NCBI GenBank assembly: GCA_026165385.1
Contig: GCA_026165385.1_4524.1
DNA length: 64,000 nucleotides
Origin: a phage
Direction: 5' to 3' (one strand)
The first letter of the stretch is position 1. Each line of letters starts with the position of its first letter. A program made the position numbers and the translations under genes. This document shows, one piece after another, positions 8,197 to 37,366 of the stretch. The notes below the pieces were generated by a model. It was not told the DNA's origin and searched no databases. It was given only the letters and a program-made list of their open reading frames with translations.

Positions 8197-8466
8197 TTAT
8201 TTCTGTGCAATTTCGATGTAAGTTTTCAAAATATTTTGCCAATTAGGCATACCTTCTTGGACATATGCCGGAGAACCGTCTTTGTTTTTGAATGATGCAA
8301 GTTTATCAGTGGCCCAATAACCTTTAGCTCGAGCTTCAGAATCAACTTTCATCCATACTTTGTTGAAGGCATTACCATTAACTTTTGCACCATATTTTTC
8401 TACTAACTTAACTGCTTCAGCTTCCAGAACTTTTAAAGTATCTCGTAAGAAACGTGCTTTAGTCAT
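8197..8466 (-). CDS. Hypothetical 89 aa protein between genes 23 and 24
   Basis: ORF on the opposite strand to the flanking late genes; has its own GTTTAC/TACTAT early-type promoter and a Shine-Dalgarno sequence; occupies the slot where T4 carries segD. Confidence 0.5.
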   Translation of the reverse strand: MTKARFLRDTLKVLEAEAVKLVEKYGAKVNGNAFNKVWMKVDSEARAKGYWATDKLASFKNKDGSPAYVQEGMPNWQNILKTYIEIAQK

Positions 8467-31389: not shown

Positions 31390-31684
31390 TATAAATTCTC
31401 TTTAAATGAAAATGCAGGACTTATTGACATTGCCTGCGCAAGCCCTCAACGGGAACATAGGTTTTGGATATTTAACGACAGGATAACCATAAACCTCGTC
31501 ATCATACCAACCACGACTTAGACAGATAACCTTTTTCTGACGCGTGATAGTACAAAATACATTCAAGAGGTACACCGTAAAACTGCCGGGGTCTTAAAAC
31601 TATAATGATTCGCAAATCATTAATCAGACAGTTCGACGGCTCCTCGATTTTCTAGCCGCACTAAGGTAGCGAATCACCTAAAAC

Positions 31685-31933
31685 TTATTTAAGGGTAATA
31701 ACAAAATGACGTACTGCTTTACGAGCTGCAGAAGCCAAAGGCTTAGCATATTTCAGTTCATCTTTTGCTTCCAGTTCAGAGGCCAAAGCTGCCTGTACCG
31801 GGTTCAGATGTTTGAAATAACGCAAGATTTCCAGTGCTTCGGCTTCAACATCAATCGACGCGCCGTAGTTTTCGTGACCGTTATTCCATGCGTTTCGTTG
31901 CAGTTCAAGAGCGTGTTGTAATTGTTTAATCAT
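31685..31933 (-). CDS. rIII: Probable rIII lysis-inhibition accessory protein
   Basis: 82 aa ORF immediately downstream of gene 31 as in T4; size matches T4 rIII (82 aa). Confidence 0.6.
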   Translation of the reverse strand: MIKQLQHALELQRNAWNNGHENYGASIDVEAEALEILRYFKHLNPVQAALASELEAKDELKYAKPLASAARKAVRHFVITLK

Positions 31934-32447: not shown

Positions 32448-32756
32448 TTACATAAGAAGCAAACGTTCTACCGGAGTACCGTCAACCGAAATTACTTTAT
32501 CAAGGCGGAAAGAACGCCACTGACCTAACTTGGTATCGAATGCTCGAACTGATTCACGAGGTTCAGAACGAACTTCTGTTGCTGGATTTCTATTTTCATA
32601 TTTGACTTCAAGTTCATCACGGGAGGCAAACATCGTACGAACATCACCGTTAGCCTTTTCAAATACAACACAATGAACGCCTACAGACAGAATAGTTTTA
32701 ATACGTTCACGAAGAACCATAGTTTCTTGTTCAGTTAAAATCATATTATTCACCAC
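32448..32756 (-). CDS. Hypothetical protein (31.1/31.2 position)
   Basis: 102 aa ORF between cd and gene 31. Confidence 0.5.
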   Translation of the reverse strand: MVNNMILTEQETMVLRERIKTILSVGVHCVVFEKANGDVRTMFASRDELEVKYENRNPATEVRSEPRESVRAFDTKLGQWRSFRLDKVISVDGTPVERLLLM

Positions 32757-33327
32757 AAAAGTTTCGAATTTGTTCCCAATTCAGAGAACGAAGATTATTA
32801 CGAGAGTACTGAATTACTTCAATACCAGCTTGTTTAAGAATGTCTGTCCAATTTTCAGGAGACCGGTCATATAATTCTGCATATACAACCTTTTTAATGC
32901 CTGACTGTGTGATAGCTTTAGTGCAATCAGGACACGGAGAAAGCGTAGTATATAACGTAGCACCTTCAATAGAATTACCTTTACGAGCTGCAAACAAAAT
33001 TGCATTCAATTCCGCATGGATTTCGTTATTAGCAGACCATGCACTATGAGCGGCCCGATGTTCTTTAGCCAAAACAAAATTATCTGCCCGGCCAAATGCT
33101 GTAGTGCCTTCTTTATGCCCAGCAACGATGACCGGGCTTGGTTTATTCTTCAACCAACCTTGTTCGGTAGCATGGTCACAACAGTTTGTACCACCTGAAG
33201 GAGACCCGTTATAACCCGTAGAGATAATGCGCCCATCTTTTTCAATGACGGCACCAACTTTCCATGAACAACATTTTGATTCTTGAGAAATCAGATATGC
33301 AATCTGAAGGTATGTGCTAGCTTTCAT
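32746..33327 (-). CDS. cd: dCMP deaminase
   Basis: 193 aa (same as T4 Cd); zinc-binding HAE...PCxxC deaminase motifs (HAELNAI, SPCPDC). Confidence 0.95.
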   Translation of the reverse strand: MKASTYLQIAYLISQESKCCSWKVGAVIEKDGRIISTGYNGSPSGGTNCCDHATEQGWLKNKPSPVIVAGHKEGTTAFGRADNFVLAKEHRAAHSAWSANNEIHAELNAILFAARKGNSIEGATLYTTLSPCPDCTKAITQSGIKKVVYAELYDRSPENWTDILKQAGIEVIQYSRNNLRSLNWEQIRNFCGE

Positions 33328-34319
33328 TATTGAACCTTATTAATATAAGTTAACAGCTCTTTAGTTTGTTCCCAACTGATGCACGCATCGGTAACGGAAA
33401 CGCCATAGGACATATTATCAGAAATTTTTTGATTTCCTTCATGTAGGAACGATTCTATCATAATTCCTTTGACCAAATCATTCGCTGCTAAATTTTTACC
33501 AATACCAATTTGATTGCTATAATGCCCAGCAGCGTTTGCATGGCTACAGTCAACCATTACATAATGATTCAGACCTACTGCCCTTGCTTTGTTAGAAGCT
33601 TCTTGAATATCAGAAGAATGATAGTTCGGGCCGTTGGTCCCGCCACGCAATACGATATGCGTATTCTGATTACCTTCAGCTTCAACAATGCCTACAGTAC
33701 CATCGACGTCCATACCCATATACCGATGAGGCCAGGCGGCACTATACATCGCGTCTGTAGCTACTTTAATAGAACCATTGGTTGCGTTCTTGAAGCCTAC
33801 GCACATCGGTAGACCTGAAGCAATTTCACGATGTGTCTGACTTTCAGTCGTACGGGCACCAATAGCAACCCATGAGAAAATACCAGAAAGATACTTAATC
33901 GTGAATGGGTCTAATACTTCAGTTGCTAATGGAAGTCCCATACGTAGAAGTTTACGACACAATGTTCGTGCAACTATAAGACCGTGGTTCATATCAAAAC
34001 TTCCATCAAGATATGGATCATTTACAAGACCTTTCCAACCTACGGTAGTTCGAGGCTTTTCAAAATAAACGCGCATCACTAACAGAACATTAGGAAGACG
34101 AGTTTGAAGTTCAGCCAGACGTTTGCCGTATTCAACAGCAGCAATAGGGTCATGAATTGAACAAGGACCTACAACAATAAGTTTGCGTGGGTCTTCACCG
34201 TTCATAATCGAATTAACTTGTTCGCGATGAGAAGCAACTTGTGATGCGTAAGCTTCCGACAAAGGAATAATCTCAGCCAGTTCTTTTGGAGAAATAAGTT
34301 TTCCGACGACAGGTAACAT
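33327..34319 (-). CDS. Class I DAHP synthase (phospho-2-dehydro-3-deoxyheptonate aldolase, AroG/AroF/AroH type)
   Basis: 330 aa; aligns by eye to E. coli AroG along its length (VVGPCSIHD, MRVYFEKPRTTVGWKGL, WVAIGARTTESQ, DCSHAN, GVSVTDACISWE); stop overlaps cd start (TAATG). Confidence 0.88.
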   Translation of the reverse strand: MLPVVGKLISPKELAEIIPLSEAYASQVASHREQVNSIMNGEDPRKLIVVGPCSIHDPIAAVEYGKRLAELQTRLPNVLLVMRVYFEKPRTTVGWKGLVNDPYLDGSFDMNHGLIVARTLCRKLLRMGLPLATEVLDPFTIKYLSGIFSWVAIGARTTESQTHREIASGLPMCVGFKNATNGSIKVATDAMYSAAWPHRYMGMDVDGTVGIVEAEGNQNTHIVLRGGTNGPNYHSSDIQEASNKARAVGLNHYVMVDCSHANAAGHYSNQIGIGKNLAANDLVKGIMIESFLHEGNQKISDNMSYGVSVTDACISWEQTKELLTYINKVQ

Positions 34320-34439
34320 AACAATCCTTAGGAAATATAAATAGATTCTGATTCAACAATACCTTTAACCGGATTAGACAGGCTAAGTTGGTAGTGCTCA
34401 GATTTATGACCATTCTCTATAGTAATGAGATAGCTCTCA

Positions 34440-34676
34440 TTATAGTGTTCCATATACTCGAGTTGCTTCAACTAAACCGTCACTGCCTAATTTAAGGCTA
34501 GTAATCTGGTCACCATCTTTAGGATTAACGATTATGAGAAAAGAACGTGGAGATTCTTGAATAACTCGTAATGTTGCATCCTGGAAACGTTCAGACACTT
34601 TATTGATGAGTGCTTGAGCAAATTCTTTTACTTTAATCTGAAATTCGTGTACTGTAATTGGATTTTCACTTAGCAT
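34440..34676 (-). CDS. Hypothetical protein
   Basis: 78 aa ORF with an early promoter (GTTTAC-N18-TACTAT) and Shine-Dalgarno upstream. Confidence 0.5.
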   Translation of the reverse strand: MLSENPITVHEFQIKVKEFAQALINKVSERFQDATLRVIQESPRSFLIIVNPKDGDQITSLKLGSDGLVEATRVYGTL

Positions 34677-34705: not shown

Positions 34706-34735
34706 ATAGTATCACAACTCCACCATGTTGTAAAC
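34706..34735 (-). promoter_or_regulatory. Early-type promoter (GTTTAC-N18-TACTAT) upstream of ORF 34440..34676
   Basis: Minus-strand motif. Confidence 0.55.
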
Positions 34736-37085: not shown

Positions 37086-37366
37086 TTTTCCTCTTTTAAA
37101 CCACTACGATAATAACATAACATAGTCTTCTGGTCATGTATATATCTTTTTACGTCGTTTAACCAGATACGAAATTCTTGAGAGTCTTCAAATGGCATTC
37201 CAACCCACGGATTACCATCAATAACCTTTACTTGCCATTTCTGGTTGTATTCGGAAATAGGCGTAGGCCATGAAGGATGTAAAGTTTCTTTAGGGCTTAC
37301 TGGCACATCCTGAGTACATCCAACTAGGAGACCAATAGATAATACAGCCACAGTTAATTTAATCAT
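37076..37366 (-). CDS. Outer-membrane spanin (Rz1-like lipoprotein)
   Basis: 96 aa; signal peptide plus lipobox (LLVGC); directly downstream of and overlapping a TMD/coiled-coil protein; T4 spanins lie in the pseT.2/pseT.3 position. Confidence 0.65.
   Translation of the reverse strand: MIKLTVAVLSIGLLVGCTQDVPVSPKETLHPSWPTPISEYNQKWQVKVIDGNPWVGMPFEDSQEFRIWLNDVKRYIHDQKTMLCYYRSGLKEEKCQ

Follow-up and report, generated by a model that had tools for sequence, protein, structure and literature searches.

Why would a T-even phage carry an enzyme for the first committed step of the shikimate pathway? [quoted passage not shown] This identification proved correct: the ORF is a real and intact type Iα DAHP synthase. 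The gene family is already known, and the window carries an ordinary member of it. The sole point that goes beyond existing annotation, and one unreported as far as the searchable literature shows, is that every substitution defining the phage clade lies in the allosteric site.

An intact DAHP synthase and its inhibitor site

Matches of the 330-residue protein to DAHP synthase models were far beyond chance. Pfam PF00793 (DAHP_synth_1) was matched at E = 5.7e-75 (252 bits against a cut-off of 25.5, profile positions 8–269 of 270), and the NCBIfam models TIGR00034, the aroFGH equivalog (427.5 bits vs a cut-off of 173.2), and NF009395 (455 vs 343) were both passed, while the AroG- and AroH-specific models were failed (364 vs a cut-off of 568, and 386 vs 463). 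Among solved structures, the best relatives were E. coli AroF (PDB 6agm, E = 1e-104), N. meningitidis DAH7PS and E. coli AroG, and in a MAFFT alignment full-length identity was 51% to AroF, 47% to AroG and 44% to AroH. Within this enzyme type, the protein belongs to the T4-like-phage subfamily phrog_5045, both by profile match (E = 5.9e-182 over 330 of 341 positions) and by its setting in a T4-like genome, with cd.2 and cd on either side.

The active site is complete. All motifs picked out beforehand from the sequence are present, i.e., GPCSIHD (C53), KPRTT (K88–T92), DCSHAN (H260), ESFLHEGNQ (E289) and TDACISWE (D311), and proper alignment revealed no loss of catalytic or metal-binding residues: C53, H260, E289 and D311 correspond to the metal ligands Cys61, His268, Glu302 and Asp326 of AroG, while R83, K88, R90, T91, R156, K177 and R225 correspond to its phosphoenolpyruvate (PEP) and erythrose-4-phosphate (E4P) residues Arg92, Lys97, Arg99, Thr100, Arg165, Lys186 and Arg234. 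Nine of these (C53, R83, K88, R156, K177, R225, H260, E289 and D311) were invariant across 129 aligned phage and cellular homologues, and R99 and T100 of the KPRT motif (AroG numbering) were invariant in a 10-sequence alignment. The structural comparison with AroG that had been suggested as a check was made through an AlphaFold2 (AF2) model built with 38 homologues (mean predicted local distance difference test score, pLDDT, of 92), which Foldseek superposed on the solved enzymes 4hso, 1n8f, 1kfl and 8e0x with template modelling (TM) scores of 0.94–0.96 and root-mean-square deviations of 1.7–2.0 Å. The predicted structure comprises the (β/α)8 barrel and the β6a/6b hairpin (strands 198–203 and 209–214).

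The phage protein thus shares with E. coli AroF (6agm/6agl) and AroG (1kfl, 1qr7) and with N. meningitidis DAH7PS (4hso) the same barrel, hairpin, metal ligands and PEP/E4P residues, including KPRT, but differs from them by the absence of 8–10 N-terminal residues, by changed inhibitor-site residues, by internal deletions of five and three residues, and by a shorter C-terminus. It does not look like a 3-deoxy-D-manno-octulosonate 8-phosphate (KDO8P) synthase, an enzyme with a KANRS-type motif in place of KPRT: KPRTT is present, and the top PDB and NCBIfam matches were all DAHP synthases. Given the family thresholds, metal ligands, substrate residues and predicted fold, identity as a DAHP synthase and catalytic activity, taken jointly, appear very probable.

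Where the phage clade departs from its cellular relatives is in the site of feedback inhibition. We scanned for clade switches, defined as positions ≥93% fixed in the phage clade for a residue present in <5% of cellular homologues, with cellular conservation ≥80%. Only seven positions of the whole protein qualified (AroG numbering: P150I, Q151K, D155G, L156I, S180P, F209Y and T223A), and all seven fall within the three segments forming the inhibitor pocket. The window's protein (I141, K142, G146, P171 and Y200, with residues 1–9 absent) does not carry an inhibitor site of the AroF, AroG or AroH isozyme type. The N-terminal extension is present, and its shortening by about eight residues relative to AroG, noticed from the sequence in a region relevant to feedback inhibition, came to 8–10 residues in alignments with AroG, AroF and AroH (phage L2 aligns to AroG I10). 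This shortening is general in the clade: 9–13 residues precede AroG position 20 in every phage-clade member vs 17–54 in cellular enzymes. Changes in this arm, such as AroF N8K and N-terminal changes of AroG, make the E. coli enzymes feedback-resistant. The combined signature of seven switches and a short N-terminus was found in 10 of 10 T4-like loci from IMG/VR, and was absent from the ~60 DAHP synthases of giant-virus metagenome-assembled genomes (MAGs) and other viral contigs.

Mutational and structural work on the E. coli enzymes bears on these same positions. In AroG, P150L abolishes inhibition by Phe altogether, S180F and F209A/S confer feedback resistance, and D155 stabilizes the inhibitor site through a salt bridge, while Q151 (Q152 in AroF) and S180 (S181 in AroF) contact the bound Phe or Tyr (reviewed in PMC9529685); in AroF, deletion of Ile11 yields a feedback-resistant enzyme (PMC10729320). 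The phage changes coincide with those of the engineered feedback-resistant (fbr) alleles, either in position (150, 180 and 209, as in aroG(fbr) P150L, S180F and F209A/S) or in affecting the N-terminal arm (as in aroF(fbr) delta-Ile11). They differ in the residues introduced, which are Ile, Pro and Tyr instead of Leu, Phe and Ala/Ser, and in being natural, combined in one protein and fixed throughout the clade. Because the pocket and the N-terminal arm closing it are both specifically altered, we expect, with somewhat better than even confidence, that the phage enzyme would be insensitive to feedback by Phe, Tyr and Trp.

Residence and mobility among T4-like phages

Over the 8 kb around the gene, the window shares 96% identity with Escherichia phage ChristianSchoenbein (Bas46, Mosigvirus) and 94–96% with many other Mosigvirus genomes, and is itself a Mosigvirus sequence. 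A tblastn survey of 50,697 phage records with the protein as query returned full-length homologues in 213 of them, 140 at ≥95% identity (99 at ≥99% and 41 at 95–99%) and 73 further ones at 35–77% (47 in the 60–80% class and 26 below 60%). Many are annotated as “phospho-2-dehydro-3-deoxyheptonate aldolase”, “aroF”, “AroG” or “DAHP synthetase”, including those of phages JS09, HX01, Shf125875, Bas46, PEi20, X20 and PM2, and one annotated GenBank protein, from phage vB_EcoM-172859UKE1 (MZ234025.1), is 100% identical to that of the window, with ~140 others at 98–99.7%. These phrog_5045, aroF or AroG genes of T4-like phages are the same gene, without difference. PHROGs v4 files the family under “moron, auxiliary metabolic gene and host takeover”, and one paper counts a DAHP synthetase gene of a T4-like Klebsiella phage as an auxiliary metabolic gene (AMG), with a hypothesized role in aromatic amino-acid synthesis (PMC11845039). 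The idea that the gene is unusual and undescribed for a T-even phage hence did not survive, given 213 records, six genera, an AMG family and an identical GenBank protein. The first-pass annotation had named, as grounds for giving that idea up, evidence of “a normal, well-described component of close relatives”; this largely holds, as the gene is indeed normal and annotated there, but it is not described functionally, and we found no functional study of any family member in the full-text literature outside subscription-only papers. A further database protein, 99% identical and labelled “[Escherichia coli]” by NCBI, lies on a 170,875-bp contig that is presumably a phage genome deposited within a bacterial assembly.

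DAHP synthases of other kinds also occur on virus-labelled contigs. About 60 such genes were seen on IMG/VR contigs that bear the label of a giant-virus MAG or of another large viral contig; these are likewise type Iα, at 40–48% identity, but have ordinary allosteric residues (P-Q-D...S...F) and a full-length N-terminus, are in several cases fused into proteins of ~650 amino acids, and stand outside the T4-like clade. A second viral lineage (3956–5005 of L034, a 261-kb IMG/VR contig, and L036) has a partly altered allosteric site (Q151N, D155H, S180P and F209Y) with a full-length N-terminus; NUDIX, type IB topoisomerase and thymidylate kinase genes flank it on the same strand.

Within the T4-like phages, gene order around the DAHP synthase is strongly conserved, i.e., pseT, small cd.x ORFs, cd.2, DAHP synthase, a variable interval of small ORFs or homing endonuclease genes, cd, 31.x, 31 and rIII. 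This order is kept in six genera of Straboviridae: Mosigvirus, Kanagawavirus (Entb_45 and PEi20), Kagamiyamavirus (EcS1), Marfavirus (EI), Winklervirus (X20) and Bragavirus (PM2), and the same position is occupied in a metagenomic T4-like contig whose DAHP synthase is only 57% identical. As had been noted beforehand, the gene sits in the pseT–cd early region and T4 has no DAHP synthase; the T4 slot holds cd.1. Homologues of T4 cd.1 lie between the DAHP synthase gene and cd in EcS1 (L006 4579–4815), X20 (L008 4498–4836) and PM2 (L009 4568–4705), and MobE-like homing endonuclease fragments occupy this gap in Klebsiella phage EI (L007 4510–5048), with Seg-like genes upstream. The interval between the DAHP synthase gene and cd is a hot spot for insertions.

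The divergence of the gene tracks that of its neighbour, with amino-acid identities by genus for DAHP synthase and cd of 77/79, 68/71, 66/75, 67/69, 58/63 and 57/57%. Its GC content at third codon positions (GC3, 0.29) is close to that of cd (0.28) and pseT (0.32), as opposed to 0.50–0.57 for E. coli aroF, aroG and aroH, and its ratio of non-synonymous to synonymous substitution rates (dN/dS) is 0.14–0.29. In neighbour-joining trees, each of 200 bootstraps split 31 phage-type sequences from their 98 closest cellular homologues; the closest of the latter, ~50–55% identical, are spread over assorted phyla, with no particular tie to enterobacterial AroF. Taken together, the synteny, cd-tracking divergence, phage-like GC3, dN/dS, bootstraps and cellular relatives argue that the family is an old, selected resident of T4-like phages rather than a recent E. 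coli capture, and the subfamily is confined to these phages. A recent capture from the E. coli host is itself rejected on the 44–51% identity to AroH, AroG and AroF, the assorted-phyla relatives, the phage-like GC3 and the 200/200 monophyly.

Long residence in the group goes along with variable presence within a genus. RB69, the type Mosigvirus, has no DAHP synthase gene: a block of 1094 bp (33331..34424, minus strand) is absent from it in a blastn comparison with the window, while the flanks are 96% identical. The RB69-type junction is found in ~11 Mosigvirus records vs ~140 with the gene, the ~10 besides RB69 including ECO111 5-P, mar005P1, JK36, JK42 and moha. The gene is thus an accessory one, mobile among T4-like phages. 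These comparisons also settle the meaning of the junction with cd. The DAHP synthase stop and cd start overlap by one shared base in TAATG (33325..33329, minus strand; ...GTT CAA TAATG AAA GCT... on the coding strand), as had been pointed out, and this overlap had been taken as a sign that the gene is no recent passenger. In RB69, however, the cd.2 stop overlaps the cd start by the same TAATG; since this junction exists without the DAHP synthase gene, the TAATG belongs to the cd start and is uninformative about old residence.

The block carries a recombination scar at its 5′ edge. It is bracketed by an imperfect 20-nt repeat, in which the cd.2-stop/cd-start junction sequence TAATGAAAGCTAGCACATAC (33310–33329) has an imperfect copy, TAATGAGAGCTATCTCATTAC, at 34422..34442 on the minus strand, and RB69 bases 8237–8255 (L010) align to both window sites. 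Just upstream of the DAHP synthase gene, a 41-residue ORF (34331..34453, minus strand), annotated as a hypothetical protein in some relatives (bas46_0049; ST0), was identified by tblastn and alignment as the 3′ fragment of a divergent cd.2 allele: it matches the ORF immediately upstream of the DAHP synthase gene in Entb_45 (49% identity, E = 3e-4) and corresponds in alignment to the C-terminal half of cd.2 proteins, the closest being of Kanagawavirus/Marfavirus type, unlike the intact resident cd.2 upstream. Because the 1.1-kb block carries this foreign cd.2 fragment, the simplest reading is that a segment comprising the 3′ part of cd.2, the DAHP synthase gene and the start of cd, from another T4-like phage, would have entered a cd.2/cd junction of RB69 type by recombination. 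Alternatively, RB69 may have undergone a deletion between the short repeats, although the foreign cd.2 fragment still marks an import. A 100-bp patch in the 5′ part of cd (33141–33240), 81% identical to RB69 between flanks of 92–100%, may tentatively be taken as the right-hand end of the imported segment, but similar patches lie at 31644–31743 and 37253–37352.

Within Mosigvirus, synonymous divergence (dS) of the DAHP synthase gene was ~0.03 vs ~0.27 for the adjacent cd (32746–34319 compared with HX01, phi25-307 and ST0, L012–L014; three close comparators only). This low value could mean a recent spread of the block by recombination, or a selective sweep limited to the cassette; however, sliding identity shows the region to be a general mosaic of 87–100% patches, with other 99% patches besides the DAHP synthase gene.

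Proposed role and competing explanations

We propose that the gene would supply an early-made, catalytically normal and feedback-insensitive DAHP synthase driving carbon into chorismate after host shut-off, a reading that we hold to have a slightly better than even chance of being right. The enzyme would convert PEP and E4P to DAHP and inorganic phosphate, and its gene would probably be an early one, expressed within a cd.2–DAHP synthase–cd message that starts at the conserved promoter separating cd.3 from cd.2. After a T4-type shut-off, new host AroF, AroG and AroH would no longer be made and the existing host enzymes would remain inhibited, while an unregulated phage enzyme would keep carbon moving through the constitutive downstream host shikimate enzymes to chorismate, and from there to aromatic amino acids for virion protein and possibly to chorismate-derived cofactors such as folate. 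The discovery of the gene as such is without importance, since hundreds of phage genomes already have it annotated and it is listed as an AMG. If the proposal is true, however, these phages would hold a natural feedback-insensitive type Iα DAHP synthase, of interest to metabolic engineers who build such alleles by mutagenesis, and would offer a clear case of a virus lifting a host metabolic brake with a single enzyme. Natural presence/absence pairs within one genus, such as Bas46 vs RB69, make a comparison of the benefit straightforward.

Several points weigh against this proposal. The absence of the gene from RB69 and about ten other Mosigvirus records makes any benefit conditional. In the closest relative, the annotation of the 48-kb neighbourhood includes no further gene of the shikimate pathway, and the effect would therefore rely wholly on host enzymes surviving infection. 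Finally, 13 of 14 pocket positions are conserved within the phage clade vs 45% of all columns (P = 2e-4), and the β6a/6b hairpin is retained in the AF2 model; both fit a remodelled functional site as well as a dead one.

The last point is what favours a re-targeted allosteric site, i.e., control by another small molecule such as a chorismate-pathway intermediate or a phage-relevant nucleotide, which would couple shikimate carbon entry to the phage programme instead of to host aromatic pools, comparable to the control of dCMP deaminase by hydroxymethyl-dCTP (hm-dCTP) and dCTP. In addition to the conserved pocket and the hairpin, the replacement residues (I, K, G, I, P, Y and A) are fixed across genera with saturated synonymous sites, and the new Lys, placed where the inhibitor main chain binds, could suit an anionic ligand. 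However, the pocket segments adjoin the barrel and the subunit interface, such that their conservation could stem from structural constraint alone, and truncation affects the N-terminal arm, the element by which the neighbouring subunit completes the pocket. We regard such re-targeting as unlikely, and as less likely still its more specific form, in which a new conserved pocket (I-K-G-I...P...Y...A) would answer a phage-relevant effector and couple shikimate/chorismate (and folate) entry to the phage replication programme. Equally doubtful is that the chorismate would go to folate, via p-aminobenzoate (pABA), to serve the one-carbon demand of thymidylate synthase, dCMP hydroxymethylase and dihydrofolate reductase (DHFR) rather than the supply of aromatic amino acids. 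The gene does lie in the early nucleotide-metabolism tract frd-td-nrdA-nrdB-...-pseT-DAHP synthase-cd, directly upstream of cd, and a DAHP synthase gene adjoins that for thymidylate kinase in the unrelated 261-kb viral contig; yet adjacency within T4 hyperplastic regions says little, no pab or fol genes accompany the DAHP synthase in the same 48-kb neighbourhood, and the demand for a catalytic cofactor is small next to that for amino acids.

The nucleotide-metabolism context also enters the idea of an E4P/PEP sink, by which the enzyme, acting mainly as an irreversible drain on the two substrates, would shift the non-oxidative pentose-phosphate pathway in favour of pentose phosphates destined for nucleotides, in line with other phage genes that redirect this pathway, e.g., cyanophage talC. 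DAHP would then pile up or still run to chorismate, though, and RB69, with equal nucleotide needs, can dispense with the gene, all of which makes the sink improbable. Among the readings that we consider highly improbable is a KDO8P-synthase-like or arabinose-linked enzyme for the arabinosyl-hydroxymethylcytosine (arabinosyl-hmC) DNA modification of RB69-type phages. It draws on the inclusion in PF00793 of KDO8P synthase, a user of arabinose-5-phosphate, and on the presence of arabinosyl-hmC in Mosigvirus DNA (PMC6024577). But RB69, in which arabinosyl-hmC was shown, lacks the gene, the arabinosylation papers are silent on it, and the protein has the KPRT motif, passes the aroFGH equivalog and is 44–51% identical over its full length to AroH, AroG and AroF; the absence from RB69 and the kept motif essentially refute both the modification link and a KDO8P-like activity. 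A functionless passenger (moron) carried along by recombination has just as slim a chance: members of a single genus differ in having the gene, and a recombination scar marks the block, yet dN/dS of 0.14–0.29 points to purifying selection, no catalytic residue has been lost between clades whose synonymous divergence is saturated, base composition is entirely that of a phage gene, and six genera have the gene in the same place.

Transcription and neighbouring features

Early expression of the gene, as the proposed role would require, is suggested by the upstream region. A sigma-70-type early promoter found by promoter scan between cd.3 and cd.2 (TTTACA-17-TACTAT with TG, 34706..34734, minus strand) is near-invariant in an alignment of the window, T4, RB69 and HX01 (GGTTTAC...GAGTTGTGATA.TAT), and the T4 record annotates an early promoter at the same place (note on Pe133295). 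The coding strand from this promoter to the DAHP synthase start showed no promoter- or terminator-like site, and an internal promoter or terminator between cd.2 and the DAHP synthase gene was rejected on that scan. Because of the conserved promoter, the T4 annotation and the uninterrupted interval, cd.2, the DAHP synthase gene and cd are likely transcribed together as an early message.

The first gene of this transcription unit would be cd.2 (34440..34676, minus strand; Pfam DUF7320, E = 8e-36), which is 97% identical to cd.2 of RB69 and 65% to that of T4. The DAHP synthase ATG is preceded by a Shine–Dalgarno sequence, TAAGGA, read from the sequence 5 nt on its 5′ side (34325..34330, minus strand). 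Downstream, cd (32746..33327, minus strand) encodes a dCMP deaminase of 193 amino acids (Pfam dCMP_cyt_deam_1, E = 2.4e-26), with 73% identity to T4 cd and 89% to RB69 cd.

Two further promoter-like motifs were seen on the opposite strand. A T4 late-promoter motif, TATAAATA, at 34336–34343 (plus strand) lies 17 nt from the DAHP synthase start codon, antisense into cd.2, and may be due to chance; such motifs number 19 in the window vs 7.3 expected, mostly in its late-gene part. A strong sigma-70-like match (TTTACC-17-TATAAT with TG) at 33495–33523 (plus strand) runs antisense within the DAHP synthase coding sequence and is probably a chance occurrence, sigma-70-like matches in the region numbering 17 vs 15.5 expected from shuffling.

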